From Stegostoma tigrinum (lineage: Eukaryota): a stretch of DNA of 64,000 bases. Location: assembly GCF_030684315.1 (NCBI RefSeq), contig NC_081387.1, positions 6,118,497 through 6,182,496 on the forward strand, read 5' to 3'. Positions 11,524 to 58,427 of the stretch are shown here, piece by piece. Made by a program: the position numbers and the translations under genes. Position 1 is the stretch's first letter. Each line of letters starts with the position of its first letter. A model generated the notes under the pieces. That model saw only the letters and a list, made by a program, of their open reading frames with translations, had not been told where the DNA came from and ran no database searches.

Positions 11524-11524
11524 T

Positions 11525-19864: not shown

Positions 19865-20280
19865 ATCTGTAGCTCAGGCTGAGGGTGAGTTTGCTGACTT
19901 GCTCACCAAGCTGGCTTGTTCTCATTCAAAAGTCGCCCCGTGCTAGGTGGCATCATCAGTGGACCCTCCAACAAAGCAGTGTCACTCTACTCTGCTTGGA
20001 GTTTAAATTGATACCACCGATGCACAACAAACTCTTCACAATATCAGTGCACTCAGACAATGAAGGCCATCAGTTTAACTGGGACAAGGTAACTGCAGTA
20101 GCCCAAGCCAAACATAGACTCACAAGGGAATTCCTAGAGGCATGGTACTCTACCAGTAATGAAATCAACAAACATATAGAATTGGATCCCATACAGATCA
20201 AAACCAGAAATGACAGTACTCACTATAACGGACCTGACTGTATATATTCCGAGTACAGTAGAATAACATCGCTTCATCAG
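19865..20280 (+). mobile_element. 3' end of a second Penelope-type family with a short inverted terminus
   Basis: ISVHSDNEGHQFNWD...REFLEAWYS...INKHIELDP (GIY-YIG C-terminus). Reverse-complement CTGATGA-containing terminus at ~19865-19990. Confidence 0.7.
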
Positions 20281-21640
20281 GGACAGGGACAGCGATAACA
20301 GGATGAAATAGGGACAGCAGTAACAGGATGGGACAAGGATAGCAATAGCAGGATGGTACAGGGACAGCAGTAACAGGATGGGACAGGGACAGCAGTAACA
20401 GGATGGGACAGGGACAGCAGTAACAGGATGGTACAGAGACAGCAATAACAGGATGGCACAGGGATAGCTGGAGCAGGATGATACAGGGATAGCAGTAACA
20501 GGATGGGACAGGGACAGCAGTAACAGGATGGTACAGGGATAGCAGTAACAGGATGGTACAGGGATAGCGATAACAGGATGGTACAGGGATAGCAGTAACA
20601 GGATGGGACAGGGACAGCGATAACAAGATGGTACAGGGATAGCAGTAACAGGATGGTACAGGGACAGCAGTAACAGGATGGTACAGGGACAGCAGTAACA
20701 GGATGGGACAGGGACAGCAGTAACAGGATGGGACAGGGACAGCAGTAACAGGATGGTACAGAGACAGCAATAACAGGATGGCACAGGGATAGCTGGAGCA
20801 GGATGATACAGGGATAGCAGTAACAGGATGGGACAGGGACAGCAGTAACAGGATGGTACAGGGATAGCAGTAACAGGATGGGACAGGGACAGCGATAACA
20901 GGATGGTACAGAGACAGCAGTAACAGGATGGTACAGGGATAGCAGTAACAGGATGGGACAGGGACAGCGATAACAGGATGGGACAGAGACAGCAGTAACA
21001 GGATGGTACAGGGATAGCAGTAACAGGATGGTACAGGGATAGCAGTAACAGGATGGGACAGGGACGACAGTAACAGGATGGTACAGGGACAGCAGTAACA
21101 GGATGGTACAGGGACAGCAGTAACCGGATGGGATAGGGATAGCAGTAACAGGAAGGGACAGGGACAACAGTTACAGGATGCGACAGCAACAGCAGTAACA
21201 GGATGGTACAGGGATAGCAGTAACAGGGTGGGACAGGGACAGCAATAACAGGAATCGGGCAGAGAGACGCTAACAGCATGGGACAGGGACAGCAGTAACA
21301 GGATGGTGTAGGGACAGCAGTAATAGGATGGTACAGGGATAGCAGTTACAGGATGGGACAGGGACAGTAGTAACAGGATGGGACAGGGATAGCAGTAACA
21401 GGATGGGACAGGAATAGCAGTAACAGGATGGGACAGGAATAGCAGTAAGAGGATGGTACAGAGACAGCAGGAACAGGATGGGAGAGAGTCAGCAATAACA
21501 AGATGGGACAGGGATAGCAGTAACAAGAATGTACAGAGGCAGCAGTAACAGTATGGGACAGGGACAGCAGTAACAGGATGGGGCAGAGAGACACTAATAG
21601 GATGGGACAGGGACAGCAGTAACAGGATGGGACAGGGAAC
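20281..21640. repeat. 25-bp minisatellite (GGGACAGCAGTAACAGGATGGKACA), ~54 units
   Basis: Directly visible 25-nt period. Confidence 0.97.
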
Positions 21641-23838
21641 CGCAGTTGCCAAGGCAGGTGAACAGTTCAAGGCACTAATTACCTGAGGCTCATTGTCTGA
21701 GAACATTGCAAAATTTGTTGGAAGTAAAACTTTATCTATGGCCTCTTCCATCCTTAGCGAGGCTTCTCAAACGTGCAAGGTTATATCGTTGCTTCATCAA
21801 GTTGAGCTGTTCTCAGAAATGTACTACCATGCTCCAAACACTCGACAATGAAATGCAGCGTGTGTTCCTTAGCTGTAGGACAACCACAGACCCTATTCAC
21901 TGCAAACCTAGGTTTGCAGGCTCTGTACTTGCACTAGTTCTGCTCTCCGTTTGTCTCATTGTGAAACTGCACCTCACCTCCAGAACATTTCTTTCAGGCT
22001 TCAGGATAATCTACACAACAGACAAGAACCTGTTCCATCTCCTCCCCCTATAAATACAATCAAAGCTCGCCCAGGCTCCATTTTAAAGAGTCAGAATGCT
22101 GATGCTTTTGTGTATGGATCATTTATATTTCAGTCTAAACAACAGACAGTGTAGACTTATTGTGTCATCATTTCCTCATAAGTCAACCCGTCCATTCCAG
22201 GTATTCGACTCGTGAACCTTCTCTGAACTGCTTCCAAAGCCTTTACATTGTGCATTAAATGGTAAGATTAAGACTGTACACAGAACAGTAGATGTGGTTA
22301 CTCAGTGCCCTTTATAACAAAAGCATAACCTCCCGAATTCTACATGAAATTTTGAACATGTATGCAGGTACAGTGTCATGCTTTTGTAGTCATATACATT
22401 TCCAAAAATATTGATTCACACTAATATAATACATTCACACACTTTCAATGGCACATGCAATACAATTACGGTTGTCACGCTAGCTTACGCTTTCGATGTC
22501 TCATAATAATACACCAGAGTCCCTCACTCTCAGGCACGCAAACAGGTAAACTCACGTTCAATAATTTCCCTCAACATGAAACCCATTCACTTGAACCATA
22601 CATGAAGTGTCTTTTTACCAGTTGTGGGTGAATCACTGCAGCGAGTGGAGACACTCGTGGTTTCTCTGACATCTCGTCTTTCTCAGCAACATTTATTCTA
22701 AAACAAGAAAACTGTCAGATGTCAGATTAAGTGTGTGGCCATGCTTAACCCATATGAGTCCCAGTAATGCCTGTCCCTTTTTGGGGCACAGGGAACATCC
22801 TCTGTTCCAGTCCTGCTCGAATACTCACTCACAACTCTTTCTCTGGTACATCAATGACGTCATCAGTGCTGCTTCCTTCCCTCTCGTGGAATTGGAAATA
22901 TTTAGTAGTCTTCCTTTTCATTTCCACTCCACTCTCAGTTTCACTTGATTCACCGGGAATGAACCAGGGAAATAAACCATCATAGTTAGAAATGAGCTGG
23001 TTGTACGGAGCTCATTGGAGATATATGAGATGAATCAGTTAAGTCTATCTCCTTCACCAGTTTTACTGGTTATAGCTCTTGGTTGTTTAGTAACATATGT
23101 ATGGACACGCGGTACATGCTTCGCACTATGGGGCTGTATTTAAAATAACAAACGAAATCAGTGAGTGGTGAAACTGGCCTCTTTATTGAGCATGCAGAAG
23201 CATAGTTTGAGGCGGCGATGGAATCCTGAAGTACAGTCCTTTCAGTTGCCTCTTTATACACTGTTCTTTCATATATTAAAATTCTATCAGTATGCTGTTC
23301 CAGAGTTTTATTTATTGTACACAGAAGTTTGTGTGATATCTGTACTGGGGAAGCAGGAGATTGCTGAAACATTTGCGAAATGCTGGCTGCTACTTGGATC
23401 AGAGCGTCTGTTCGGTCTGCTTGCATAATTAAGGGGTGTTGGTCCTTTTAACTTTTAAGTTAGTGAATGTTAGTAAAAATACTAGACCTATATGATCCAA
23501 ATAAGTTAGAAATTATACATGCATTAAATAAAAGTATGAAGGATATTAAACTGATTACCACACCTGGGCTGTGAGATTTTGTTTACTATTTGTTGGTGTG
23601 AGCTTCATTCATTCATGAAATTTCACTGAAGCATTGTTTTGGTAGTAACTGTCTTAAGGAAACAGAGGTCCTATTCAATATGTATTTAACAACATGTTTT
23701 AGGGTACTAATGAAGGAAATGTGTTTGATGTTCTGCAATCTATTCAAGTCCTGAGAGATGGTTGCTAAGGAGCTGATTAATATTATAACCTTTTCACTGT
23801 TTCATGCGGGTTGAGGAGAAACTATGGCAGTGAGGATA

Positions 23839-27982: not shown

Positions 27983-28034
27983 ATGTTGCTGATCCTTTTT
28001 TCCATTTCCCTGTGTTTTTCCTGGGTCTCTCCCG
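27983..28034 (+). CDS. MHC class I exon 1 (signal peptide MLLILFSISLCFSWVSP)
   Basis: Hydrophobic leader followed by a G|GTGAGT donor; paralogous to 45806-45857. Confidence 0.9.
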
Positions 28035-31000
28035 GTGAGTGCAGAATTCAGCATTCCGTTCTCACTTTCTCTCTGGGGTGAATGTGAATCTCTTGGTGCC
28101 AGTTTGAAATGAGGGATGCTATCCAGCCAGCCTTATATTTTACACACTGAAGACACTGATGGGATTTTCTTTTAACTGTTGTGTCATTGCACATTTATCC
28201 GACTGCTCGGCCAGCAATTAATCCTCGATTGCCTTGGGGCAGGTAGGCCGACAGTGCTGTGAGGGAGGGAGTTCAGGATTTTGACCCAACAGCAGTGAAG
28301 GAACGACAATATATTTCCATGTGAGGATGGTGAGTGGCAATTGGAGGAACAAAAAGTTGCTGGAAAAGCTCAGCAGGCCCAGCAGCATCTGTGAAGGAGA
28401 AAACAGAGTTGAAGTTTCGCGTCCGGTGACCCTTCCTCAGAACAGCACAGATGCTGCCGGACCTGCTGAGCTTTTCCAGCAACTTTGTTTTTGTTCTGGA
28501 TTTCCAGCATTCGCAGTTCTTTTGGTTTTTAATTAGCTGTTGGAGGATCATGCCTGTGGCGGTGGTCCCATGTATCTGCTGCCCTTGCCCTTCCAAGTGG
28601 CAGAGGCCACAGGCTTGAAAGGTGCTTTCCGAGGGATCCTTGATGAATTTATGCAGCGCATCTTATAAATGGTACACACTGCTGGTGGTAGACTGAGTGA
28701 ATGTTGAACGTTGTGGATGTGATACGAATCAAGTAGGCTGCTTTGTCCTGACTGGTGTCAATCTTCTCCATCGTTGCAGCTGCACTCACCCAAGCAAGTG
28801 GTATGATTTCAGTCATGCTCCTGATGTGTTGCTTGTAGATTGTGGACAGGCTTTGGGGAGTCAAAAGGGAACCTATTTATTGTGGTATTCCTAGCCTCTG
28901 ACCTTGTCTTGAAACCACTATATTAATGTGGCCAGTTGAGTTCAGTTTCTGTTCTTTGGTAAAATAAGAACATTATAACCAGGAGCAGGACTAGGCCAGC
29001 TGGCCCTTTGAGCTTGCTCTGCCCTTCCTTAAGATAATAGTTGAGCATTTTGTAGCCTCCATTCCACTTATTGATTTCTCACCATCACCCCTAATTCCAT
29101 TAGAGTTCAAAAGATTATATATCTTAGCTTTAAAAACATTCGCTGAAGAAGCCTCAATTGCTTCACTGGGCAGAGAATTCCACAGATTCACAACCCTTTA
29201 GGTGAAGAAGTTCCTCCTCCATTCAGTCCTACATCTGCTCCTGCCAATTTTGAGGCTGTGTCTGCCCTCCTGTTCTAGTTTCACCCGCCATTGGAAACAA
29301 CCTCCCTGCTTCTGTCTCGTTTATTCCTTTCATAATTTTATGTGTTTCTATAAGATACCCTCTCATTCTTCTAAATTCCAATTAATATAATCCCAGTCTA
29401 CTCAGTCTCTCTTTATAAACCAACCCTCTCAACTCTGCAATCAACCCAGTGAATCTCCTCTGCACTCCGCCCAGTGCCAATGCATCCTTCCTCAAGTAAG
29501 GAGTCCAAAATTGAACACAGTACTCCAGGTATCGCCTCACCAGCACCTTGTACAGCTGCAACATAACCTCTCTGCTTTTAAACTCAATCTGTTTGGCAAT
29601 GAAGAACAAAATTCCACTTGACTTCTTAATTACCTGTTATACTGCAAACCAAATTTCTGTGATTCATGCACAAGGGCACCCAGGATGTTGATTGTTGAAA
29701 GGAATTGGCGATGATTGCTTTCCTAATCAGTGATATCCACATCCCACGAAACAAAGTTAATTTTTGGATGATTTTAATTTTTATATTAATTTTAATGGGG
29801 GGGGGGCACAAAACAGAGTCATCATCCCTCATTGAAGTCTTCTAAACATTCTGGGCAGGAGGAAAGTAATCCATTTTTAATCCAGCCCAGGCTGTCATGG
29901 TGGAATAGGTCAGCTTATCTCATCCACGTCCTCCTACCTTGTATAAAGGGATGATTTTGAAGCTCAGAGGTGTAACCCTGCTCCAGATCGTCTATCTCCC
30001 TGTTTATACTGTTAGCCAGGATTCTGACAGTGCGATAAAGTGGCCGATTATTGAAGATTGTCAATGTGTGGATAGGCCTCACTTTGATCAGATGGTGGTG
30101 TGTGTTAATAGTTATTAACCTGAGCCTTTCACTGATTATTTTACAGACACTAATGTGCTCACTATGGTATACACGGCAGTCTCTGGCATTGAAAAATTTC
30201 CTGCTTTCAGCGGTGTTGCAATGATCAATGGAGTTGAAGTTGATTATTATGACAGCAATATCCGTCAGATGATGCCCAGACAACAATTCATGGCAGATTC
30301 ATTCAGTGAGGACTTCTGGAAAATGCTCACAGATATCGGGAATTCACGAACAGACACGGCAATAGAGAATCTGAATTTAATCATGAAGAACATGAACCAG
30401 ACTTCTGGTAAGATGAGAGATGCAGTGTCTCTCACTGACTGCCCTGTTTACTGAGTGCCAGAAAGGTACCCCGTCATATTTTGACAGCAGACTGTGACCC
30501 TGGACTGTATGGTGTGTTACACACTCTCTGAGTCACGGTCACTGGGAGCATTACTCTGTAGCTTCTCTCTATTCTGATCAAGATATCGATTTAGTTGTGT
30601 CATAGAACGTAAAACAGCACAGCACAGAAATAGGCCCTTTGGCCCACCGTCTCTGCACCAGCCACGGTACTGTTTTAAAACTAACCGTAACTGCCTGCAG
30701 GTGGTCTGTATCCCTTATTCCCTGCCTGTTCATCTGTCTGTCTAAATGCCTCTGAAACATTGCTATTACATCTGGTTCAGCCACCTCCTCCGGCAACATG
30801 CTTCAGTGACCTACCACACATTGTATTAAAAAAAAACTTCTGTCACACATCTTGGTTAAATTTTCCCTCTCACCTTAAACTTGAGGCCCCAAGTATTTGA
30901 CATTTCCACATTGGGGAAAAAGACTCCAACTATTCACCCTATAAATGTCTCTCAACAACGAACACCTTCCTGAAAACAGACCAGGATTGTCAACCTCTCC

Positions 31001-34000
31001 TTACAGCTTTTGAATAGGTGTAGAGATCTACAGCATGGAAAAATGGCCTTTCAGCCCATCTGCTCTCATCCAGGCAGCATCCTGGTAAACCTGTTTTGAA
31101 CCTCTCCAAAATCTCCACATCCTTCCTGGAGTGCGGGAGCAGAACTACCTTAAAGTCTTTCAAGACCCAGCACCTCCTCCTCCTTAATATCAACATGCCC
31201 GAGAATATCAACATTCCCCTTTCTAATCTTACCATCATCCATGTCCTTCTCATTGGAGAATACTGATACAAAGTATTCATTAAGGATCTCACCCACTTTA
31301 TCAGGCTCCATGCATAAATTCCCTCCTTAGTCCATGAGTGGATCTACTTTTCCCCTGGCTAATATATATATAAAATGCCTTGGAATTGTGCTTAATCCTG
31401 CTTTCCAAGGTATTTTCATGGCCCCATTCAGCCCTCCTAATCCCTTGTTTAAATACTTTCCTGCTTCCTTTATTCTGATTTCAGTTTCTTAAATCTTACA
31501 TATGCTTTCTTTCTCTTTTCGGCTAAACTTTCAATATCTCTTATCATCCAAGGTTCTCAAATCTTGCCATCTTTCCTTGTCTTTTATCCTCACAGGACCA
31601 GGCTGTTCCTGAATTCTGATTAACTGACTATAAAAAGTCTTCCCACACATGTCTGGTGTGAGTTTTACCTTCGAACCGTCACTCACAATCTAATGTCTCC
31701 AATGCCTGCTAAATACTGTTATAATTCATTTTCTCCCAGTCTAGCACCTTCACCTGAGGACTAGCCTTATCTTTATCCATAACTATGTTAAAACTTAGAG
31801 GTACGATCACTAGAAGTGAAGATCAGGAGATTTGTATCTCTGTCGACATTATTACATGACCGCGTATAAGGTACCATTTGTTGTCCATCCCTGACTATTC
31901 CAATGGGATGGTTTCCTGGACCATTAGTAATGTGGATCAGGAATCATATTTTGGCTACTCTGGGTAAGGATGAGCATTTCCTTCCCTAAAAGATAGGTTT
32001 TTACAATTCATGACAGTTGCTATGGTCACCCTTTCAAGAGTCGCTTCAGATTTAGTAATGGCGTTTAAATTTCACCAGTTGCTGTCTTTATGTTGAACCT
32101 ATGTCCCCTGAACACTATCCCAAGCCTCAGGATTACAAGTCCAGTGCAATCACCACATTACCACCAGCTACCCTGGGGTCAGATTTATCATTGTGTGAGT
32201 AAGAATCCATAAAATGGTTGTGATCCTTTGTAAATGAGCATCTTGTTGGGGAATTCTGTCATCTCACTGGGTCTCAGTATCTATTCATATATAAAGGGGA
32301 GAGATCAATCTTCTCCAGTTACAGAGCGGACAATATGAAAGGAGAGTAAATATGTCCACGGTAAGGAAGTGGAGATAATTAAGAAAAGATCATGGGGCTG
32401 AAGCTTCCCATTTTCAAGCTAAATACAGATTTCAGGGAGTTTCCTGATGAATTTCCCATCATGGGCTTGCAACTTATGTCACACAATTCTACGCTCTGCT
32501 ATTCATGAATAAACAGTTTGATATAGTTTGGGCAATACCAGAGGTAATTACCACTGCAGAGGAGCCTTGAGTTGCTCAGAAGTTAGAGTCATATTTAACA
32601 CCCAGTCCCACACCACTTCAAATGCTATAAGCCTGAGACTGTCCTCTCACGCTGCTGCTCCAGTGAGAAGGTGGCCCAGCAAGGTGAAGCTTCATCGACA
32701 GAGACCTGGAGGTGCTGGAGGACCAGGTAATGGAGAGGAGGACAGTGTTGTATCCTGCTGACTGGCAAAGGAGGGCATACCACCAGACCAAGGTGAATGT
32801 CTGGAATTCCCTACCCCAAAGATTTTTGGAGGCTAGCTCACTGAAAGAATTTAGCAATCGTATAAAGGCACAGCACTGCTAGAAGAAGTTAATGATGTTC
32901 TTCATCTGCAAGTGTAAATGCCACCACCTTCTCTCTGCTTCCTCACACTCACTCTCACTCTTCCACTGCACAGTAACCTTACAACTCTCACCATTATTCA
33001 GAGCATCACAACTCAATGCCCCTGACCCACTTCTTCCTCCCAAATGACTAACCCTGCCTTCCCTCTGTGTTTCTTACTCACTCACTGAGGACCACCTTTC
33101 CTGCCCTTGCATTATCATGAACTGCTCCTCCATCCACTGTCATCTGACTCTATCCTTCCCATTGCCTCAAACTGAAGCAACATATCACAGATGCTGAAGA
33201 TCTCTAATAAAAACAGAAAGTGCTGGAGAAACTCTACACATCTGGCAACATCGGCGGAGAGAGAAACACAGAGTTAACATTTCAAGTTCCGTGTGTCTCT
33301 TCTCTATAAATCAGTTCTGAGCGCTGAGTTCCAACGAAGAGTCATATCAGATTGGAAATATTAAGTTTGGTTTCCCCCACTTTGTCACATTACAAGAGAA
33401 TTTCTCAAATCTTCAGGCTGGGAGGACCAAGACGGGAGGAACTGATCACCAATGTTTGATTCCTTAGTCCCAAGGAGACGAAGACCCTTGAACTAACTGG
33501 AGAGGAGTGTGACCATTCATATGGAAACACTAAAAGCTGCAAGTCTCTGTGTCCCAGTGAGCAATATTGAGCTGGGACTGCATGGTTCGCCCATTACCAC
33601 CACTGCCAACATCTTAATATGTATAAACCTATTGAACAACAAATGCCCTCTCCTCTTTTGCAGGCAGCACCCACACAGCTGCCACCCCAAAGAGGCAAAC
33701 CCCCACAGTGCATCTGCTGCAGCCCCACTGCTGGGGAGGGCATCACTACACCCCCAGAGGGCACATCGGCAATCTTACACCTGAACCCACTGCCCACAGT
33801 TGAGTGACATTCTCCGCAGTGGGATCTCTTTCTAAATTTAACACAGCCGCACATTCTGATGAGCACATCACTGCAGTTGGTTGTGGAAGGAATAGCCCAG
33901 GTCGCTGGCATTTGGAGGATGGCCAGAGACTGGGCGCCTGCTCAGCCCCAGGCAGAAGATAATCTCATTGTGTTAGCCATTCATAATTTCACCAAACTGC

Positions 34001-37000
34001 GCACCCAGAGGAGCAGCAGGTGGGTTTGTTAAGTGACATTGCGTTGAAGGTTAGAAGAGTCCATCATGATAATTTTCCCCAGCTGGCTCTGCATGCCGTG
34101 TGTCTGATTGTTTCCATGGAGAGTTTAGCAGCTGCTGTTGGAGACTGCGGGCCAGCGGAACCCTCAGTGCCAGCCGATAATATACACAGATGTGGACTCC
34201 ATCACTGTGGCCAATGGTGCTCTGTATCAGTGACAAGACCAGAAGGGGAACAGGGAGTTTGACCTCACTTCATAAAGACATGAGGATAAGGAGCAGCAGT
34301 AGGCCATTTATCCCCTTCAGACTGACCCATCACTTAGAAGATTAGAGCTGATTGGTCCCAGGTCTCAACTCCTCATCACCCTCAACTCTCCACTATTTCA
34401 AAAGCCTATCTCCCTCCTATTTTTAAATGCTTTCAGTGATCTAGCCTCCATAAATCTCTGGGATAGGGAATTCCAGACATTCCCCATCCTCTGGGAGAAG
34501 AAATTCCTTTCCATCTCAGTTATAAATGAGCATCCTTATTTTCATTAACTGTATCCCTCCATTCAAGAATCCCCCATCAGTACAAATATCTTCTGAACAT
34601 CTACCCAGTCTCAAAATCTTAAATGTTTCATTCTACTAAACTCTAACGAATACAGGTCAAACCTGTTTAGCCATTCTTGATTGCCATTGGATATTATTCT
34701 TGACTCTAAGCTTGCTCATATCTTTCTATAACCTGAATTTTTCTGCTCTGTCTTTGTACAAGAGCAAAAAAGAACACTAGCACCTCCCATTGCTGTACCC
34801 TTTCTGGAAATTTGTGATGATTCCATGTGGGAATTATTCGGAATAGCACGGTGTCTCAGTCCTGTGATGCCCGAACAATTGCACCAAACAACAATGAGGC
34901 TTTAACACAGGGAGCTGCAGTACAGTGGACATGTGGTCCTCCAAGAAGAAGGCTGTGCAATGCCTCAGCATGCACCTCTGACATCTTACATGGTGATGCA
35001 TGCAACACAAGTTGTGTCACTCATGAACATTGGGATATTATAACCATGATATGAACACATCCTCCATGCTGCAACACAGCTCTCATTCCCTTTGTCACCA
35101 CGAAGTATAGCATGCAATGTCAGTGCACATGTTGTCACGTACTTACACATCACTTTAGGCCTTATGCTGTGCTAAGAACTTTATAATGTGTTTGACAATT
35201 GATGACTACAGGCAACACTGTTACATTTGCTGATGATTCTGCTTCCCAGCAATGACAAAAATGAAACTATCCTGTTCAATAGAATGGACATGATTGCATA
35301 TAGAGTCATAGAGTTGTACAGTTATACAGCATGGAAACAGACCCTTCAGCCCAACTCATCCATGCCAATCAGGTCTCCTGCTTGAGGCTATTTTTTGTAA
35401 CATATGTTGTACTAGGGTTTAGCAGTCGATATGAAGTAATTTGACAGTAACTCATTGACCCTTCAGTACCTGATTAATGCAGTTGCCTCCTGAAGTAGCC
35501 ACAAGTGCATCCTGCCCCCACAGACCAAACAGAGCAAACACACTGCACCCACTGTAGGAGAGCTGGCACACATTTCTCCTTTTTTTTTGTGCAGTGGAGA
35601 TTTGGTACAAGATGGAATGCAAACCGGGCTGTGCTCCTTACAATGAAATCCAAGCACTGTCTGAAAATCAAACTGCCACATCCCCAACTAATTATCTCCT
35701 GTTCTCTGTAGCTGTTCCTGTTAAGCACATCAGCTTCAATTGTCCGTACCTTTCCATTTTCATTTTATGGTCGATCTCTCCCATTTCCCTGATAGCTCCT
35801 GGCTGACCAACTTACCTTGCCTCTTTTGCAACATACAGTTCCACATTGAAGCCAAGGGTGGCACAGTGGCTCAATGGTTAGCACTGAGGCCTCACAGTGC
35901 CAGGGGCCTGGGATTTATTCCACCCTCGGGTGACTGTCTGTGTGGAGTTTGCACATTCTCCCCACGTCTGCGTGAGTTTCCTCTGGTTTCTCCTGTTTCC
36001 TCCCACAGCCCAAAGATGTGCAGGTTAAGTGTATTAGCCATATAAATTGCTCCATTTTATCCAGGGATGAGTAGACCAGGTGGATTACCAATGGTAAATG
36101 TGGGGTTATGGGATACAGTACTGGGTGGAATGCTCTTTGGAGGGTCACTGTGGACTTGATGGGCCAAATGGCCTCCTTCCACATTGTGAGCATTCTGTGA
36201 TTGTGGTGAGTTGCAAGAAATCCCCACCATCTCTTGCTCCCTTTATTTCTATCTAATTCTAGATCCCCTTTCCTCTCTGTGTGTGACTATCTATTAATTA
36301 TTGCTGATTGATGCCTGTTTGGTCACTGACAGGAATTCACACGCTCCAATGGATACGTTCTGTTGAGGTCAGTGATGACGGCTCCATGAAAAGATCGATG
36401 AGATTTGGATTTGACGGAAAAGATTTCATTAGTTTAGAGCCAGACAGAATGAGATGGGTTGCAACCAATCACTTTGCAGTGAAGCTGAAGGAGAAATGGG
36501 ATTCTGATGAATCCTGGAACAACTACTGGGAAAGATATTTGTTAGGTGTATATATCCAACGTTTGAAGCAATATCTTGAAGCTGGAAAGGAATATTTCAA
36601 AAGGAAAGGTATGTATTTCAATTTTGATCCTATGCCTTGATTCACTGATCGATGAAACCATCTCACATTTGGGGTCTGTTCATTTTCATCTTTTTCCATC
36701 ACAGTTCAGCCTGAAGTGTTCATCTTCAGGAGTGAGCCCAATCGCCAAGACAAGCCGCTCACTCTCTCCTGCCTGGTCACTGGATTTTATCCTGCAGACA
36801 TCGAGGTGACCTGGCTGAGGAATGGAGAGGTCCTGTCTGAGACACAATCCTCGGGGATTCGACCGAACCATGACGGGACTCATCAGATCCGGAAGGAGAT
36901 TGAAATCAGTGCTGGGGATGAAGATCAATATTCCTGTCAAATTGAACACAGCAGCCTGGCAGAGGCCAAACTCTATCAGTGGCGTAAGAATCTAGATAAA

Positions 37001-39094
37001 ATGTGTGTTCGTATAAGAACATGGGTTTACGTTTAGCCCCTTGAGTCTGTTCCAGCATTCAGTTAGGTCCTGTCTGATTTGTCCCTCACTTCCTTCACTC
37101 AACATTGTTCCAGGTTTCTTCCTACCCTTCCCCAACAAAACCCTCCTGATGTCAGGCTGGAAGCATTCAGTTGTTTATATGAACAATAAATATGTTAAGA
37201 GGGTAGCCTAGACCCTAACTTTTCCCTTTTGTTCCAGATGCAGTTTTAAGGGTCAAAGTACCCGTTTAGCAAAACATAATTTATTCAAATACAATTGCTA
37301 AAATGAAACAAAAGAAAGAAAAAACTTGGAATAGTGTAACTCTATTGGAATAGTTAACAGAATAATAGATACAGTAACTATTGCTCATTAACTGTTCCAA
37401 TATAGTAGCATCCCATAAGCAAATGCTTGGTAAAAGGCAAATTTGAAAATAGATTTGTCTCACATGCAATCCAGCAGCCCAGGAAGAGAACACCCAGCTT
37501 TTGACTGTAATTAAGGGAAGGAAGAATGCCTGCCATTTCTTCACGACCGCCATCATCAAGTGCTGCTGAATATTACAACCAAGAATTGCTTGCCTCTGTG
37601 AGTGGGAGCTTGGCTACACCAATTCAGGCTGCTTCTATTGTTCCAGTTTCTAAAAAGAAACCACTCAAGGCTTCACAAGTTACTTATTTTTCTCCTAGTC
37701 TGCTCAGCATCTGTCTTCCAAGAAACCAAAAGAAAACACACCTCTAAAGCTGCAGCATTGGCACACTCACAACATTTTGGTGAGACAATTCCAGACTTCG
37801 ACTCCCATTTTTCAGAAAAAGTGCTTTCTAATATCACTCTTAAAAGACCTCATTGTTACTTGAAGATTGTTCTCTCTTATACCGGAGTATATCACCAGAT
37901 CTTTTTACACTCTCATCAATCAGATCTTTGGTGACTTCACTGGAGAGTGAAATCAGGTGAGGGTAAACCCAGCGTTTAAACTAATCCCATCAATTCCCAA
38001 TGAACGGGAATCAAGACAGAACTGAGAATGAATCTGGGAACCAATACAATTCTAATATTATTCTAATGTCTTTTAGAAATCTTTGAAAATAGTGTGGAAC
38101 GTTTCCATCTTGCCATTCTGATTGGATTAGTTACTGCAGTGTCGTCAATAGTCGGAATAATCATCTGGAAAAAGCCCTGGAAAGGTAAGAAACAGGGAGA
38201 GGGTAATGTAGAACTAAGGGGACAGGGTAAATGTAGGGTGAGTAGTGGAAGTACAGGACACTGTGTTGAGTGGAACTGACTGAATTCCCAAACTCAGTTA
38301 CACATGTATAAACACATTCTTGTTCCCTCTCTGATCTTCCTTTGTATGATAGGCTGAGACCAGGTTGAATATTGATCATTAAAACCATGCCACACATTCA
38401 CATCCTCACTGACTGAAGATTGATAGAATGGAAGAGATCTCCAGATTCTCCCTGATGTTTAAGGATAGATGAGAGTGTGAGAATGAGGATTTCTGTCACA
38501 GTCTCTGTTCCCCTATACTTGTTATGTTCTCACTCTCTGAGAATGGATTATTCCCCATTCTCATGGGCATCTATTTTGTTTCTGCAGATTCACCAACTGG
38601 GACCTACATAACAGCTCGCAGTAAGTTACTGAGCGGAAAGCGTGTTGGGGATGGTACAGAATGCATTGGAAGTTGTAGAATTGCATTCACCTCGGTGTTA
38701 CTCAGGATGCCAGACATGCCACATTCCTCACTCTCCAGTCCCTCAATTCCCAGTCACTTATCCTCCTCTCACTCCTCGCGACACACCTCAATCATTCTCC
38801 CTTCAGTCCCTTGCCCTTTAATCTCTCATCACTACTCATTCACCATTCAGTTCCTCACCCAAAACTCTCTCATCATCTGGTCCTCCGTCAGCTCTTTCAC
38901 CCTACAAACTCTCAACTTCAATTGCCTCTGTGCTGTGCTATGTGAGTCTGGTTAGTTATATGCTGAGTGTGATTGAATCCTGGATCGCGTGAGTGATGGA
39001 GAATATTTCAGACTGATTTTGTATGTTATTATATTTCTCTTATTCTGTTTATGTTTTCTCAGCTTCTGATGTCTCCATTCCAGCTCCTTCATGA
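27983..39094 (+). CDS. MHC class I heavy chain, nonclassical-type, intact (346 aa): join(27983-28034,30147-30407,36333-36608,36705-36983,38077-38184,38588-38620,39063-39094)
   Basis: All introns are GT-AG and phase 1; 1041 nt in frame. Exons encode leader, alpha1, alpha2, alpha3 (C1-set), TM and two cytoplasmic segments. Confidence 0.95.
28349..28530. mobile_element. Palindromic PLE-terminus element (second family) in MHC intron 1
   Basis: Inverted arms; minus strand gttCTGAGGAagggtcaccggacgcGAAACttcaactc; ttggagga present on both flanks. Confidence 0.75.
28560..29690 (-). mobile_element. Non-LTR retrotransposon fragments (CR1 at 28965-29690) in intron 1
   Basis: TPQSLSTIYK..IRS.TE..PLAW and LEYCVQFWTPYLRKD motifs. 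Confidence 0.75.
30147..30407 (+). CDS. MHC class I exon 2 (alpha1)
   Basis: DTNVLTMVYTAVSGIEKFPAFSGV...DYYDS...PR...FW...NQTS; ttacag acceptor and gtaag donor; N86 sequon. Confidence 0.95.
30600..31800 (-). mobile_element. CR1 LINE fragments in intron 2
   Basis: CR1 3'UTR (catagaac tail) and ORF2 remnants. Confidence 0.7.
32680..32925 (+). mobile_element. Myb/SANT-like ORF remnant of a Harbinger-type transposon
   Basis: FIDRDLEVLEDQVMERRTVLYP ... QHC*KK.ND, split by a short LINE-derived piece. Confidence 0.5.
35855..36200 (+). mobile_element. tRNA-derived V-SINE (HE1-like)
   Basis: A-box TGGCTCAATGGTTAGCAC and V-domain GTGTGGAGTTTGCACATTCTCCCC..GTTTCCTCCCAC. Confidence 0.85.
36333..36608 (+). 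CDS. MHC class I exon 3 (alpha2, no cysteines)
   Basis: GIHTLQW...FGFDGKDFISL...W...KEKWD...YL...LKQYLEAGKE. Confidence 0.96.
36705..36983 (+). CDS. MHC class I exon 4 (alpha3, Ig C1-set)
   Basis: LSCLVTGFYP.DIEVTWLRNG...PNHDGTHQ...YSCQIEHSSL. Confidence 0.97.
37175..37765. mobile_element. Solo LTR-like repeat in MHC intron 4
   Basis: Similar to 52413-52990 and 19201-19739 (CCTAGACC, AATAGATTTGTCTCAC, CATCCCATAA). Confidence 0.65.
38077..38184 (+). CDS. MHC class I exon 5 (connecting peptide + TM)
   Basis: LAILIGLVTAVSSIVGIIIW followed by KK; ttttag acceptor and gtaag donor. Confidence 0.9.
38588..38620 (+). CDS. MHC class I exon 6 (cytoplasmic, DSPTGTYITAR)
   Basis: 33-nt phase-1 exon, ctgcag / gtaagt, YxxA motif. 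Confidence 0.8.
39063..39094 (+). CDS. MHC class I exon 7 (TSDVSIPAPS*)
   Basis: Polypyrimidine-AG acceptor, SDVS motif, TGA. A GTAAGT donor at 39099 suggests a further UTR exon (acceptor ~39296, AATAAA at 40000). Confidence 0.75.
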
Positions 39095-40399
39095 TTCAGT
39101 AAGTGTCATTTTAACTTTTATCAGAGATATATTTGTAACTTTCCCCTCACCTCTTGACTAATTCCACCCTCTCACCCTCACTGTCCCAGACAGTGTTAAA
39201 ACCTGTCAGACTAATTTTACTCCCTTGCCCACCCTGAAGTGACTGCATTGTGTCTGTCCATTCCTTACTTTGTGGGCTTTCTGGGTTCCACTGCAGGACA
39301 TTCCCGGAGCCTCATTGAGGAATGAAGGAAATCTCCTGTTCCAGTGTGAACATGGACACCATTGAACATCCTTCCATATCACAGCAGGCAAACAGATTTT
39401 TGGCTCATTGTTCGCACCCAGTCCTTTCAGGAATGAGATCGATTTTTTTTTCTAGGGAATGTATTTCCACTGACTGAACAGTGAATCCCGGATTTGCAGG
39501 AATGGGGGGAACCTGATTCTTCAAGTGAGACCTTCTCAAGTCATGATCCAATCCCATCTCAGAAACGTGAGCAGCTTCACTGTCAGAGGAATCTTCACAG
39601 ATGGTTTCTCCCTCACACTTTCTCAACTTCACTGTCTTCAGTGGTTCAGTCATTTACCTGAAATGAAACAATGTCCTGAGGTAACTCAGAGACAGTTTTT
39701 ATATTGTAGGCAACTGAATGATTTTGCACTTTTTGTCAACAAATTCTAGTGGTCATGTACATATCTGTGTAAAGTTTGCAACTGTCTATCGTTATGCTGA
39801 TGAAAAATACTTGCTATTTGTTTGTTAATATTTAACATGCATTCTATTTTAAGCTGAACAGCTGTGTTTTGAATTTGAAGTACCCGCTGTGAACTCCTGT
39901 GTGATGTATAAATTTTACAATCGGATTTATTTACATTGTTATTTACACTGTTATTCATCAATGTTTAACCATAAATGCCGATAATGGTGTTTTGCAATTA
40001 ATAAACAATGGTTTATGGTTGATTTTTCCACTTTCTTCAATAATGATTTCATGAGAAAGGTTTAATTCGTTCACTCAGCAGCTTGTGGCTCTTGGAATCA
40101 GCAGTAGATGAGCTTCAATTCATTGTGAAGTGGGGGAGTCAGGTCCATTCAACTCTCCAATGAGCCATCCCCAAATGAACGGAGAAGCACAAAGTGATGT
40201 TTGTATCTTGTGTGTTCAGAGTTTGATGGTTGATAATGCTTGGGAGTGTTCATTCCCCAGCTGCTGGGAATCAGGAATATGTCACAGACTGGTGACCAAG
40301 CAGGTATTGTAGTGAGGAAAAGGCAGGGTCACCAGCTGAATGTTTCAACCAGGTCTGAGCTCACAGGCTTCTGCAGTGTGGCAGATCAATGGGAATCTT

Positions 40400-40745: not shown

Positions 40746-42519
40746 CAGCCATGAAGGTGATGGTGTGCGGTTACTGGGAGAGTGTGAGAGTTGTGAATGT
40801 TACATTAGATGAGTGGCCAAGAAAGCTAAAAACTGAACCTGTAATCTCCTGCAAATATCTCACACTCTTAGCAAGACACTAAAGAGTGCCAGCAGTCTGG
40901 GTGAGAAACATGTGAATGTTCCCTCCTTCAAGAATACACAGGGGCAGAAAAGGGGTTAAAAGACCTTCAATCCTGGTCTGGGTTTGTCTGGGGACAAACG
41001 ACCTATGGTGCGGGCTAGTGTGCTGTGAATGTCACAGCTCAAGGAACAACCATTCAAACAGCTTTGTGCTGCATCTAGAACAAGAGGGAAATTCTTAATC
41101 TGTGTTCTGGCATCAGGCAATGCTGAAAAGAAGGACAAAGGAGTTCCATTCAAGCTCCAGAGCCAAGAATCTCAAAATTGAGTATCAAGTAATGCAACTG
41201 GTAATACACGCAGCAACGGCCACAGTGTTCAGATATTCATTACTTGCAAACAATTCAGATTGACAAATTTTCTTTTTAACTTTCATATTTTTCACTTGCC
41301 CCTATTTCTAAGCTTGTATTGTGCACATTACTTTCCTATTTCTTTTTGCCGTTAATATTGAATAAACTTGCTTTTAATTAATTCAGGATACTCTGATTAC
41401 GTTAGAAAAATATAAGTTCATTCAGTTGGATAAGCAGGGACGAACACAAACACACAAACACAGACAGATGGATTTATACAGGCACACAAACATGGTGCCC
41501 AATTCCTTACCCCACTGATAGAGCTTGGCCTCTGCCAGGCTGCTGTGTTCAATTTGACAGGAATATTGATCCTCATCCCCAGCATTGATCTCAATCTTTT
41601 TGGATCTGATGAGTCCTATCATGGTTTGGTCGAATCCCTGAGGATTGTGTCTCAGGCACAAACTCTCCATTCCTTAGCCAGGTCACCTCGATGTCTACAG
41701 GATAAAATCCAGTGACCAGGCAGGAGAGAGAGAGTGGCTTGACCTGACGGATGGGCTCACTCCTGGAGATGAACACTTTGGGCTGAACTGTGATGGGAAA
41801 GGGTGAAAACTCAAACAATAGACAGACACTGAATTGGAGAGCGATTTCATAAATCAGTGAAGTTTGACCAGAATTTGGGATCAAAACTGAAATAAATATT
41901 CCTTTCTTGCTTCCAGATTACTGTTTAAGTATTGAACAAATGCTTCTTCAAGGTGGTTTTCCAAAAGTTGTTCCAAGCTTGATCAGAATTCCATTTCTCT
42001 CTTACCTCCACTGCGTGATGATTTGCTGTGACCCTTCTCATTTTGCCTAGTTCTAAACTAAAAAAGTCCTTTCCATCAAATCCAACTTGCATTGATCTCT
42101 TAACAGAACGTTTCTGATTAGAATCTTCTTCAAGAAACTCAACAGTCTGTATCCATTGGAACGTGTGAATGCCTGTGCGTGATCAAACAGAGAGATGATG
42201 ATCAAACAGAAATAATTGGTCAGGGAAAATCACGAACAAATTTGCAGAGAAGGGGATCTGGGATCAGATAGAAATGTCAGATCAGAGTCACGGTCTGAAC
42301 AGAGTGGAAAGGGTCATAGCCTCAATTTGAAATGTTGAGGAAGCATTTTCTGGTCAAGATGGTGGTGGAGTAGGACCCTCCAACAGGAGCTCGTTCTGTT
42401 CATTTCCTATTTCCTGTCTCTTTTCCCCTTGTTGATGTTCAATCCTGAGGTACAGTGAGCTGGAGACACAGAGCTGAGCAGGGAGAGCCAGCAGGCCACA
42501 GGCAGGGCAGTGTCGTCAA

Positions 42520-42800
42520 ATGGGCTGGAGGATCACATGGAGCAGGGATAGCCAGTTGGTTGGAGGATCACATGGACCAGGGAGAGCCAGTTGGTTGGAG
42601 GATCACATGGAGCAGGGAGAGCCAGTGGGCTGGAGGCTCACACGGAGCAGGGAGAGCCAGTGGGCTGCAGGACCGAGCAGTGTGGGCACAGGCTGGAGGC
42701 TTGAACAGAGTGGGGGCAGACAGTGGGCTGGAGATCCGGGCAATGTGGGCACAGGCAGTGGGCTGGAGGCTCGAGCAGAGCGGGGCAGTTGTTGGACTGT
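42520..42800. repeat. 35-bp tandem repeat (TGGAGGATCACATGGAGCAGGGAGAGCCAGTTGGT), degenerating 3'
   Basis: Units start at 42526, 42561 and 42596. Confidence 0.85.
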
Positions 42801-43154
42801 GGTCCGATGCTGGCAGTTAGCAGCCTGTGAGCCGAGTCAGACCACGTGTGGAAGTTCGCTGCACTGACCTACCGTAGGTCCCGTATGGAAAGATTGTAAT
42901 GCATATCTTTTGAACATTATTCTCAATTTTTCCAAACTTATACAATTAACAACTGTAAGCAATGTAACACTTATTCCTTTCTTCTTCCCTTCGTTTCTGT
43001 AATCTGCAACAATGCTCTGGACTACAGTACTTTGTACCTAAGGCGGTGCCACAGGGGGTGACATTGAAAACTTTGTCTGTATTCCTGATCTTCCACACTT
43101 CAGTACCTGCGACAATAAAGGAAATTCCAGATTAAAATTCTAAAATCAGTTCAG

Positions 43155-44625
43155 TGACCTCACAGCTGCTGCGGGATGGTCTGAGTGGAGTGACCGAGGG
43201 GTCAGTGCTGGGGGATGGACTGAGTGGAGTGACGCAGGGGTCAGTGCTGGGGGATGGACTGAGTGGAGTGACCCAGGGGTCAGTGCTGGGGAATGGACTG
43301 AGTGGAGTGACTCAGGGAACAGTGCTGGGGTATGGGCTGAGTGAAGTGACCCAGGGGTCAGTGCTGGGGGACGGACTGAGTGGAGTGACTCAGGGATCAG
43401 TGCTGGGGTATGGGCTGAGTGAAGTGACCCAGGGGTCAGTGCTGGGGGACGGACTGAGTGGAGTGACTCAGGGATCAGTGCTGGGGTATGGGCTGAGTGA
43501 AGTGACCCAGGGGTCAGTGCTGGGGGACGGACTGAGTGGAGTGACCCAGGTGTCTGTGCTGGTGGTGAACTGAGTGGAATGACCCAGGGGTCAGTGCTGG
43601 GGAATGGACTGAGTGGAGTGACCCAGGGGTCAGTGCTGGGGAATGGACTGAGTGGAGTGACGCAGGGATCAGTGCTGGGGTATGGGATGAGTGAAGTGAC
43701 CCAGGGGTCAGTGCTGGGGGACGGACTGAGTGGAGTGACCCAGGTGCCTGTGCTGGTGGTGAACTGAGTGGAGTGACCCAGGGGTCAGTGCTGGGGGATA
43801 GATTGAGTGGAGTGACCCAGGTGTCAGTGCTGGGGGATGGACTGAATGGAGTGACTTAGTGGTCAGTGCTGGGCGATGGACTGAATGGAGTCACCCTGGG
43901 GTCAATGCTGGCAGATGGACTGAGTGGAGTGTCCGAGGAGCCAGTGCTGGGGGATAGATTGAGTGGAGTGACTCAGGGGTCATTGCTGGGGGATTGACTG
44001 AGTGGAGTGACCCAGGGGTCAGTGCTGGGGATGGACTGAGTGAAGTGACCCAGGTGTCAGCGCTGGGGTTGGACTGAGTCGAGTGACCCAGGGGCCAGTG
44101 CTGGGGAATGGACTGAGTTTAGTGACCCAGAGTCAGTGCTGGGAGATGTACTGAGTGGAGTGACCCAGGTGTCAGTGCTGGGAGATGGACTGAGTAGAGT
44201 GACCCAGGGGTCGGTGCTGGGGGTGGACTGAGTGGAGTGACTCAGTGGTCAGTGCTGGCAAATGGACTGAGTGGAGTGAACGAGGGGCCAGTGCTGGGGG
44301 ATTGATTGAGTGGAGTGACCCAGGGGTCAGTGCTGGGGGTTGGACTGAGTGGTGTGACTCAGGGGTCAGTGCTGGCAAATGGACTGAGTGGAGTGAACGA
44401 GGGGCTAGTGCTGGGGGATTGATTGAGTGGAGTGACCCAGCGGTCAGTGCTGGGGGTTGGACTGAATGGTCTGACCCAGGGTTCAGTGCTGGGGGATGGA
44501 CTGAGTGGAGTGACTGTGGGGTCAATGCTGGCAGATGGACTGAGTGGAGTGTCCCAGGGCTCAATGCTGGGGAATGGACTGAGTGGAGTGACCTTGGGGT
44601 CAGTGCTGGTAAATGGGCTGAGTGT
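43155..44625. repeat. 39-bp G-rich minisatellite (GTCAGTGCTGGGGGATGGACTGAGTGGAGTGACCCAGGG)
   Basis: 39-nt period (43201, 43240...); source of the GSVLGDGLSGVTQ ORFs. Confidence 0.97.
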
Positions 44626-46060
44626 ACTGTTCATGATAGATCAGTTGTGGGATTAATGTTTTGATTGACTAATCATAGTTTCAGCAGGAACATGGGCCCA
44701 TCCTCACCTCATGAATGCACAGTCCTGTTAATTTCTGCCAAATGAGTCTCCTCACATTCGCTATCGATGAGGGTCTGCCTCTGATCATCTCCTTGATCAT
44801 CGTCACTGTATTATGGATGCTGGGCTCAAACAGGCAAGCAGAACAAATAGGGCACAAACACACGAGAAAGTGTTCACACAAATGGGCTTGTCCCACAGGC
44901 ACAAAAAACAAGCAGCCAGGATAATGAGATGTTCACACTCTGGTGTGAATGATGCTCGGTCGAGAGAAAATGAGTCCTTCCCGTGGGAAGCCCAGAACTG
45001 CCATCCAAAGACCTTCTACTTGGACAGTAAAGAGATAGGATGTCCCAGTCCATGAGGTTAGATGTCCCATCAAAACAAAATTAAAGACCGAGCCGTTTAG
45101 CCATCTCTTTACCTTTCACCCACCCCATCCTATCCCACTTCCTGGGAGGTACCTTGGGGTAAGATTCAAAAACCATGGATAGAATTTGACTGTGATTGCA
45201 TGAATATTTACAAGTTCATTCATACATTCTAATAACGTAAGGTCCATGTAAAAAGTGCATAATGCCTCCTCTTGGTAACAACTCAAGGAGATCCATTTTC
45301 CCTTCAGAGGGGTGCACCTCATTTCCGTATGCATGACTAAACACCGGTAAAGCTTGCAAATTTCTCCCTCTTGTTTATGTAGGTCATGGAAATTTAAGAG
45401 AAAACCATTCTTTTCAAGAACACCATCACAGCTGAGCCTGGGTTGGGTTAAACATGGGGCATCCTTCTCCTCCTCCCCACAGTGTTTACAGACTTTAGAA
45501 AAGGAGGGATGAAGCTGTTTGGCTTCTCTCAATCGATGTGAAAATTGAACATTGTCCATTCGAATCATTTCCCATTTGCTCCGAGCTTCTCTGATCTGCG
45601 GGTTTTCTCGTGCTGCAGTCAGGAGACCTGCACACAAATCCCATCAGAGACTCCCAGAGACTGTGCTGCCTTCAGTGAGTAAAATATCAGGCTGGCTGTA
45701 TAACAGGCGGCTGGTCAAACATCCCCTATTTCAAACTCTCACCAAGAGATTCACATTCACCCCAGAGAGAGAGAGAGAGAGAGAAAAGTTGAATTCTGTC
45801 CTTATGCGGAGAGGCCCAAGAAAAACACAGGGAGATGGAGAAAAAGATCAGCAACATTCTGGGAATGTACTGCCCCTCTTTCAATCAGACAGTGAGAACA
45901 AAACACTCTGACAGGAAAACAACTGTTGTTTTCAGACTGACAAAACAGAAATCCTTCTCTACCACGGCTCCATTTCACAATTGAGAAAGCATTTTGACCT
46001 TTCCCGAAATACAAGCTGCAGAACCAGAGTCAATGACTGGTCACGGTCTCAGTGAAATAT

Positions 46061-48330: not shown

Positions 48331-48367
48331 TTAGATCAGAACATGACACTAAAACTGAAATATATAT

Positions 48368-48592
48368 CTTTCCTTTCAAAATATTTCTTTCCAGCTTCCA
48401 GATAACTGTTTAAATTTTCATCAGAATCCCATTTCTCCTTCAGCTTCGCTGCAGAGTGATTTGATGCAACCCATCTCATTCTGGCTGGCCCTAACCTAAT
48501 AACGTCCTTTCCATCAAATCCAAATCATATTGACCTCTTCACAGAGCCATCATCACTGACCTCAACCTAGCTATCTGTTGAAGTGTGAATTC
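48368..48592 (-). pseudogene. Isolated MHC class I alpha2 exon remnant (paralog 3)
   Basis: VEVSDDGSVKRSI*FGFDGKDV...RMRWVASNHSAAKLKEKWDSDE...YLEAGKKYFERK; internal deletion, stops and donor GT>AT. Flanking intron sequence is also homologous. Confidence 0.9.
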
Positions 48593-55690: not shown

Positions 55691-58427
55691 GCAGAATTAG
55701 AGTTATAGAGATGGATAGAACTGGAATAGACTCTTCAATCCAACTCCTCCATGCTGACTATCTAACCTAAAATAATCAAGTGCCATTTGTCCACATTTGT
55801 TCACATCTCCCTAAATCCTTCATGTTCATGTACACATTCAGATGCCTTCTAGCTGTTGTAACTGTACCAACCTTTAGCACTTCCTCCGGGTGAAAAAGCT
55901 GCCCCTTAGGTCCCACTAAAAATCTTTCCCTTCTCACCTTAAACCTCTGCCCACGAGAACAGAGAACGAGAACACAGAAAACACAGCACAGGTTTGAGCC
56001 CATCAGCATTTTTAACTAATCCCTTGTGCCTAAGCTTAGTTCATAGCCATCCATTGCTTGCATATTCATGTGTTTATCTAAAAGTCCCTTAAGTGCGCCC
56101 ATCATGTCTACATCTGCCAAAACTCCTGGCATGTGCACCTGACTCCTACCACTCTCTGGTGAAAAATCTTATCTCTCACGTCACATTTGAAATTTCTCCC
56201 ACTCACATTAAATGCATGTTCCCCCGTAGTATTAGATGTTGCAAATCTGGCGGGGGGTGGGGGGGGGGTGGGGGTGGTGGGAGGTTCCTTCCATCAGCCT
56301 GATCTGTGAATCTCATTATTTTATCAATGCCTATCAAGTGTTCCACAGAACCAATCCAAGATTTTTCTATCCTCTCTTTGTAGCTCATATCCTCTAATCC
56401 AGGCAGAACCCAGGTAAACCTCTTCGGCACCCTTTCCAAAGTCTCCATATTCCTCCTGTAATGTGGTGACCAGAGCTGAATATAATACTCTAAATTTGAT
56501 CCAAACAAAGCCTTATAAAGTTTCAACATGACATCCTGACTCTTGTACTCAATTCTGTGATCATTAAAATAAAATATATCATATGCCATCTTTACCAATC
56601 TATTTGTGTAGCCACTTTCAGGGACTATGAACTTGAACCTGAAGATCCATCTGTATATCAATATTGTTCAGGGTTGTGCCATTAATTGCATAATTTTCCT
56701 TAACAATTGATCTCCCAAAATTTGACACTTCACACTTACCTAGAGTAAAGAGCATTTATCATTTTTCTAGCCATATCGGCAACTGATCTATATCTCACTG
56801 TATCCTTTGACAACCATCTGCACTCTCCAGAACCGCACCGATCGGTGTGTTATCTGCATACTTACTAATACACTCACCTACATTTCCATTCAAGTCATTT
56901 CTATATGCTTATTGCCTATATATACAAATACATACATACACAAATATATAAGTAAACATATCGCAAACAGCCGAGGTCCCAGTAGAGATCCATGTGGAAT
57001 ACCACTATTCATGGACCTCCAGGCAGAAAAACACTCTTCCACTACCACCTGCTCCCTTCTATGGGCAAACCAATTCTCAATCACGGCACAAGTCACTGTG
57101 GATCTCTTGCATCCTGGACATCTGGATGAGCATACCATGAAGGTACTTGTCGAAAACCTTAAGAAAATCCCTGCAGGCAATATCTACAGCTCTATATCAT
57201 TGATCACCTTCACGACTACCTCAAAAACTTCAGTCAAGTTACTGAGACATGGCTTGCTCCACACAAAGCTCAGCTGATGCTCCTTAATTAGGTAATAATT
57301 TTCCAAATGTGCTAATATCCCATCCCCAAGAATTATTTCCAACATCTTCCCAACTCAAATCTGAGAATCATTGATCTATTGTTTCCTGGATTATCTCTAT
57401 TCAACTTCTGGAAGAGTGGAAAAGCCTTAGTTACTCATCAGTCCTCTGCGACTTCTCCAGTGACAAAAGAGGATACAATGATCTTGGTCAATGCCCCAGA
57501 AATCTCCTCTCTTGCCTTTCTCAAAAACTTAGAGTAGATACCATCGGGCCCTGGGGACTTATCCACCTTAATATTCTTCAACAGATGCAACGCAACTTCT
57601 TTCTTGATCTCAAAATGCCCTAGCATATCCCCATGCTGCACATTAATCTCACTATCCTCCATATCACTTATCTCAGTGAATGCTGACATAACGTACTCTT
57701 TTAGAATGTTACCCATACCTTGTGGTTCCAAGCATAACTTCTGTCCTTTATAATTGAGTGGTCCAACCTTCTCCCTAATTACCCTCTCCTTATTAAAGTA
57801 TATGTATATTGCCTTGGGATTCTCTTTAAGCCTTCTTGCTAAAATAATTTCACAGTACCTGATTGTTCTCCTAATTCCCTCCTTGAGTTATTTCCTGTTT
57901 TCTTTATATTCCTTATGGGACCTCTCTGATTTTCATTTTTTAAAGCTTACACATGATTTATTTTACTCCTTTTGATGAAAATCACAACCTCTCTTGTTAT
58001 CCAAGGTTCCTTTACTTTGGCATCCTTGTCCTTAATCCTTTCCAGAACACAAAGGTCCTGAATCCTGCTCAGTAGGCCTTTAAACTGAATTTGATGGATA
58101 ACAGCTCATCCCAATTAACACTCCCTAGCTCCTGTCAATTACAGATGTAATTTGCCTTCACCCACATTGTACCTTCCCTGACTCATCCTTATTCATAGCT
58201 ATTTTAACACTTCAAGAAATGTGATCACTGTTCAAAATGCTCTCGCGAAATGCTCATTCCGCTGTCAAATCTTATTAGCCAAATATGGTCCGTTCTCTCA
58301 TTGAGCTATTCATACACTGTTTCAAGAAACCCTCTTCAATGCACTTAACAAATCCTTCCCCATCTAAGCCTCTTGCTGTCAGGGATTCCAGTCAAAATTG
58401 AGGAAATCAAGTCACCTACTGTGACAA

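Follow-up and report, generated by a model that had tools for sequence, protein, structure and literature searches.

The window, as the whole 64-kb stretch analysed is called here, holds on its forward strand an MHC class I gene of seven coding exons (27983 to 39098) with AG/GT flanks throughout. Its spliced coding sequence translates into 346 amino acids identical to the NCBI model XP_059495571.1 of Stegostoma tigrinum (P0006), confirming the intact spliced reading frame claimed in a preliminary description of this DNA. Exon 1 (27983-28034) encodes a leader peptide of 17 residues plus 1 nt, exon 2 (30147-30407) a cysteine-free alpha1 domain with M7, F59, N84 and a sole N-glycan site at N86, and exon 3 (36333-36608; 276 nt, open frame) the alpha2 domain, with S100, V101, Y164 and R167 as well as W97, W147, W152 and W156. 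Exon 4 (36705-36983) corresponds to an alpha3 C1-set domain whose C203-C259 pair is intact, exon 5 (38077-38184) to the connecting peptide and the transmembrane segment, helical in the model described below, exon 6 (38588-38620) to a tyrosine-containing cytoplasmic segment, and exon 7 (39063-39098) to the cytoplasmic end and stop codon. The order of leader, alpha1, alpha2, alpha3, transmembrane and cytoplasmic exons, the Pfam matches to MHC_I (PF00129, residues 22-191) and C1-set (201-281), and a predicted class I fold place the product in the class I superfamily. Exon 6 is skipped in the NCBI isoform P0080; its tyrosine lies inside an SPxxTYxTA motif common to most of the tails printed and, judging from the motif, is a possible trafficking signal.

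Groove residues are given in HLA-A2 numbering, taken from a published alignment and checked to be gap-free against cysteine-bearing alpha2 exons of the same genome; this register also agrees with alignments to PDB chains. On the reverse strand, the window contains a broken paralog with an alpha2 and a frameshifted alpha3 (41506-42172, ends approximate; V101 and a 5-codon insertion), an orphan paralog leader exon with a degenerate splice donor (45806-45857), for which no alpha1 exon was found within the 64 kb, and a broken alpha2 fragment (48367-48592) showing V101, frameshifts, a stop and a 46-nt deletion over position 164. The preliminary description had used the two alpha2 paralogs as evidence of a shared loss. 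V101 is indeed present in both, and F164 is read in the copy at ~42 kb across a 1-nt gap, but, since both are broken and neither has an alpha1 exon inside the window, they add little to the case for a lineage-wide loss. Both recur nearby (L015-L019, contig G000:C44 at 6.16-6.20 Mb and 6.356 Mb), and L016 and L017 translate identically, which points to a recent segmental duplication. The window also shows a broken coiled-coil-like coding fragment (13900-14700, forward strand) with sub-threshold Pfam matches only, and tandem repeats and LINE/SINE-like fragments that produce long spurious open reading frames (3900-5300, 7600-11700, 20100-21700, 42450-44650 and 58300-63400).

In the intact gene, codon 101 reads GTT (Val, 36362-36364) and codon 164 reads TAT (Tyr, 36551-36553), while cysteines occur in the protein only at residues 11 (leader), 219 and 274 (the alpha3 pair). 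The substitutions of C101 by valine and of C164 by tyrosine in cysteine-free alpha1 and alpha2 domains, as first described, are therefore correct, and with 0 Cys in these domains an alternative disulfide is ruled out. The C101-C164 bond is well conserved and is considered to stabilise the part of the groove unsupported by an Ig domain (PMC8236899). The gene likewise departs from the classical class Ia (UAA) signature of G100-C101-C164, W167 and eight terminal anchors. The absence of the bond is thus real and unusual for class I, yet it is a trait of an already described shark lineage.

Public contig sets were aligned on the alpha2-alpha3 stretch, covering four runs from at most four samples and two studies; their kind is unrecorded, and they are read as transcript-derived because the contigs are spliced. 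Splicing was seen at the three of the seven junctions examined, namely alpha1-alpha2 (three of the four runs), alpha2-alpha3, where a 96-nt GT..AG intron is skipped (four of four), and alpha3-transmembrane (three of four). Codon 101 is covered in three runs and codon 164 in four, and alpha2 appears without variant letters in all four, in contigs that drop rare variants and represent at most four samples. Alpha2 dN/dS values range from 0.28 to 0.44 against 12 paralogs of the same genome (two with stop codons, which were skipped), and the whale-shark ortholog (P0081) is 92% identical, differing at 27 of 346 residues and at just 4 of 92 in alpha2, with V101 and Y164 retained. The gene is intact, spliced, expressed and conserved. 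That it might instead be a young pseudogene whose cysteines were lost through decay, as the many broken neighbouring copies could suggest and as the preliminary description had considered, can practically be dismissed given the open frame, the contigs spliced in every run of both studies, the low dN/dS and the near-identity of alpha2 with that of the whale shark.

The extent of the loss was evaluated with three protein searches, two of which gave the best 120 of 174 and the best 120 of 205 matches, yielding 189 proteins and 206 alpha2 domains. Once domains missing either site were dropped and duplicates collapsed, 91 family domains (alpha2 at least 50% identical) and 64 domains of other class I molecules were set side by side, the family set including close paralogs, so that its counts are not independent. 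Among the matches listed, G100 and C101 are each found in 0/91 family domains versus 64/64 of the others, C164 in 8/91 (each without C101) versus 64/64, W167 in 0/91 versus 61/64, and Y159 in 19/91 versus 57/64. Loss of the cysteine pair is therefore not a chance event, the complete pair occurring in none of the family domains and in all of the others. Relatives come from at least 13 shark species among the matches listed, including Heptranchias, Pristiophorus and Heterodontus, and span both main shark branches. All 21 ray alpha2 domains among these matches carry G100-C101-C164 and are at most 41% identical to the family, and no chimaera record is found among them.

From 100 proteins, some of which gave two modules, 94 ectodomains passed length and duplicate filters and were placed in a tree. 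The 80 that belong to the family group together as a single clade (SH-aLRT 100, stem 0.67), although long branches meet, which bears on where the family attaches among the lineages. Within this clade, the gene and its ortholog from the whale shark make up a branch apart. Changes between C164 and other residues number five on this tree, so a cysteine at 164 without its partner has been retained or re-acquired on several occasions. A loss shared by the lineage rather than due to decay, as proposed at the outset, is thus borne out by the absence of C101 in all 91 family domains, by their single clade and by the dN/dS range given above. Elsewhere in these proteins, residue 59 of P0006 (HLA ~45), a methionine in this gene, is a mostly unpaired cysteine in 30/80 family ectodomains, three of which also have cysteine at residue 52 and might form a new alpha1 bond. 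The two-module proteins P0004, P0005, P0017, P0090 and P0098 were taken for annotation read-throughs, each having a transmembrane segment between modules and several of them also a second leader. On the contrary, the ray proteins P0147-P0156, of up to 1391 residues and with multiple class I modules spaced ~270-276 residues apart, have no room for a transmembrane segment between some modules and, judged on this spacing, might be real tandem ectodomains.

Contig G000:C44 carries a BET-domain gene (5.34 Mb) and a beta2m exon (~5.449 Mb), followed by 19 alpha2 matches of the Cys-less family (5.53-7.07 Mb), UGA-like exons (6.25 and 6.78 Mb), UDA-like exons (6.41 Mb) and an alpha1 exon resembling UFA (6.44 Mb); outside this cluster, UBA-like exons occur at 10.7-11.15 Mb. 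Lineage names were assigned by eye against published queries and P0145. Within the cluster, the UGA-like exons form two near-identical copies (L025/L026 at 6.25-6.27 Mb, L045/L046 at 6.78 Mb), UGA being described in a review as single- or low-copy; L013 (7071219-7071491), a broken alpha2 exon of the family, encodes Cys at position 100 followed by Ala, and L050 (6715924-6716103) is an alpha1-like exon that by eye fits none of UAA to UGA. The arrangement of a multicopy family with a brd2-like (BET) gene, beta2m and UDA is the one given for UEA in the accessible text of PMC10751288, where multicopy UEA and single-copy UDA are placed beside brd2 and beta2m in a shark MHC-Ib cluster. UBA and UEA are, according to the review text available, the two expanded shark class I families, and the white-shark gene LOC121291255 (P0017), which includes a member of the Cys-less family, is classed as MHC-Ib in PMC10751288.

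The nurse-shark query 'Gcirratum_UCA_NODE_26056' (PMC10751288 Supplemental File 10) is, by eye, identical to the gene at 71/92 alpha2, 85/93 alpha3 and 38/87 alpha1 positions, and has V101, L164 and no alpha2 cysteine. Query and gene thus share V101, the cysteine-free alpha2, a multicopy family, the brd2-beta2m-UDA cluster and a shark-only occurrence in the sample, while they differ at position 164 (L against Y), and the closest zebra-shark match of the query is the neighbouring paralog L002/L003. Since alpha1 identity is only 38/87, the gene belongs to a different subgroup. UEA is reportedly present in sharks and was not detected in rays or chimaeras, is said to lack the conserved classical peptide-terminus anchors, and reportedly comprises three sublineages of weak tissue expression. 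The distribution seen here, with at least 13 shark species and 0/21 ray domains among the matches listed, fits this description; as to the anchors, M7, F59, N84 and L143 differ from the list in the available text of PMC4364491, whereas K146, W147, Y159 and Y171 are kept (4/8). UEA, the first candidate of the preliminary description, is supported by synteny, by the multicopy cluster and by the nurse-shark match, and the name is the most likely one on synteny, copy number and the UEA abstract. The label 'UEA' has 0 occurrences in the available text of the PMC10751288 supplement, in which the nurse-shark query is labelled UCA, and we infer that the latter is an older working name of UEA. Lineage identity as UEA, together with lineage-wide cysteine loss, can be held with high confidence.

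An undescribed lineage separate from UEA might be invoked because the comparison sequences carried no UEA label and because the gene and its whale-shark ortholog branch by themselves. Considering, on the contrary, that (i) only one large multicopy family was seen in the brd2-beta2m-UDA cluster and the gene is part of it, (ii) it falls in the same clade as relatives of the nurse-shark query (P0049), L002/L003 being near that query in alpha2, and (iii) the family is found in sharks and absent from the 21 ray domains among the matches listed, such a lineage appears very improbable. The gene is most likely a further member of an already described shark lineage, with Cys-less sequences already in print. 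The preliminary description held that membership of a known Cys-less sublineage would remove the novelty; this largely applies, Cys-less alpha2 domains of the family and of dogfish UCA having been published, except that the trait belongs to the whole lineage and not to a sublineage. The literature search, to which the primary UEA and UDA papers were external, found no prose saying that UEA or UCA lacks the alpha2 cysteines, and those papers probably state the loss.

Other shark class I molecules help to delimit the family. To our knowledge, UCA is confined to dogfish sharks. By eye, the published spiny dogfish UCA sequence (AF515705) likewise lacks G100, C101, C164 and W167 and shares W97, V101, W152 and W156 with the gene, but it has V164 and F147 and only 34/92 alpha2 identity, so that the gene was rejected as dogfish UCA, which appears as a Cys-less relative of a different lineage. 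No dogfish UCA protein was among the matches listed in the protein searches. Shark UAA, UBA, UDA, UFA and UGA share class I architecture and chromosome with the gene, while their alpha2 domains are only ~29-39% identical to it, their queries as printed all retain C101 and C164, and so do the UAA-, UBA-, UDA- and UGA-like exons of this genome. A ray query in the same supplement, Pamandae_UHA (PMC10751288 Supplemental File 10), also has a Cys-free alpha2 as printed and is highly divergent, unlike this family. Outside cartilaginous fishes, HLA-F and Xenopus XNC4 are nonclassical like the gene and offer a functional analogy only, without orthology. HLA-F retains the disulfide. XNC4, according to the accessible part of a review citing unpublished data, possibly binds unusually long peptides without conserved terminal anchors.

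The preliminary description also proposed that a Val/aromatic hydrophobic pair replaces the bond. V101 is present in 83/89 family domains and bulky hydrophobics are preferred at position 164, given that 66/91 domains have L, F, Y or W there, and both V101 and Y164 are conserved in the whale-shark ortholog. These observations would suit a conserved pair that substitutes for the disulfide while keeping the classical geometry. However, position 164 takes 11 different residues among 91 domains (L31 F25 Y9 C8 S7 G4 D3 V1 H1 T1 W1), being aromatic in just 35/91 and G, S, D, T, H or a lone C in 24/91; it ranks by entropy as the fourth most variable of 91 alpha2 positions and requires 24 changes on the tree, in comparison with 4 at position 101; and G100 and W167 have gone as well. 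The pair as proposed is not supported in view of this variability, and its role as a substitute for the bond seems improbable.

What is conserved and what varies in the groove suggests another explanation. In class I, the fixed residue G100 (pbG10) is described as breaking the strand, lifting C101-C164 and raising W167 (pbW77) to block the groove (PMC8236899, in the text available). In the family, W147 and W156 are each found in 91/91 domains, W152 and G116 in 89/91, R114 in 76/91 and W97 in 62/91, while tyrosine at position 7 falls outside the six commonest residues in the 80 ectodomains, valine being the usual one. Entropy averages 2.14 bits over 11 positions of the A end, compared with 1.32 bits over 11 positions of the F end, and 1.74 at residues 157-174 against 0.69 at 103-156. 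This contrast between ends is partial, because high variability extends to the F-pocket positions contributed by alpha1 (77, 80, 84) and because the gene retains Y159 and Y171. Among 10 paralogs, pN/pS reaches 0.67 at 157-174 versus 0.35 at 103-156, a raised value that is below 1 and does not demonstrate positive selection on the helix. The family retains T143 (59/80), K146 (72/80) and W147 (80/80), varies at positions 5, 7 and 99 of the groove floor, and has Q96, D122, P235 and Q242, which we take to be beta2m contact residues, in 80/80 ectodomains each. An AlphaFold2 model from a 56-row alignment displays a class I fold with pLDDT of 83-93 in the alpha1/alpha2 block and a pTM of 0.60; such models are biased to known folds, and this one indicates nothing fine-grained on the pocket. 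Its top Foldseek matches are MR1 and chicken BF2 (TM ~0.72-0.76 by target length, 30-35% identity), and in the PDB copy searched no chain of this family was found, the best sequence match scoring 177 bits.

Taken as a whole, the gene probably represents a nonclassical, multicopy and shark-wide family, most likely UEA, in which the disulfide was lost with the N-terminal lock. A single loss of the C101-C164 bond is likely, within the breakdown of the lock that shuts the groove at the end for the peptide N terminus. Without G100, C101-C164 and W167, the first strand of alpha2 would run regularly, and the C-terminal helix of alpha2 would rest on the floor through V101, L160, V/I165, L168 and the groove contents, with position 164 acting as a free, paralog-specific shim rather than as half of a conserved pair. 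The molecule would probably associate with beta2m and be displayed on the cell, and a hydrophobic ligand would be held at the conserved W97/W147/W152/W156-K146 end, whereas the A-pocket end facing invariant-type T or NK receptors would differ from paralog to paralog. An altered A-pocket end is a reasonable expectation, held somewhat less firmly than the overall reading. Concerning the ligand class, we tentatively favour a long peptide or lipopeptide anchored at its C terminus, ahead of an empty MIC-like groove or of a lipid or small molecule. Since mutation of C101-C164 abolishes the interaction of HLA-A*02:01 with TAPBPR (PMC6926029, in the text available), UEA would likely mature by another route.

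The alternative that survives best is a collapsed, empty groove in a protein that, like MIC, would serve NK-type receptors as a stress or self ligand, the variable alpha2 helix being then a contact for receptors or pathogens. W147, W152 and W156, invariant or nearly so, could together with W97 fill the groove, many of the variable positions sit on the helices, and classical class I and MIC-A are not alike in the geometry that depends on G100 (PMC8236899, in the text available). On the contrary, the retention of T143, K146 and W147 along with a variable floor at 5, 7 and 99 suggests ligand contact, and the invariance of the presumed beta2m-contact residues also speaks against it. An empty groove is accordingly regarded as unlikely, although as less so than the Val/aromatic substitute.

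Returning to the preferred reading of a disulfide lost with the N-terminal lock in UEA, neither the lineage nor its sequences are new to the literature; the gain is a structural prediction open to testing, together with an expressed and well-conserved member to which it applies. The remaining value lies in the coupling of the cysteine loss to those of G100 and W167 and to a variable position 164, in a family for which the PDB copy searched holds no structure; coupling of the lock losses (Y7, G100, C101-C164 and W167) was not found in the papers searched. It is conceivable, though we hold this only tentatively and less firmly than the choice of ligand class, that UEA/UCA is a large, ancient and naturally disulfide-free family with the entire N-terminal lock dismantled, the helix around 164 diversified among paralogs and the tryptophan cage kept, binding open-ended hydrophobic ligands. 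An expressed Cys-less family present in six shark orders provides a natural experiment on the function of the bond and on class I folding and loading in its absence and, if the reading is true, these sharks would fold such molecules and bring them to the cell surface without the bond that human class I needs for recognition by TAPBPR.
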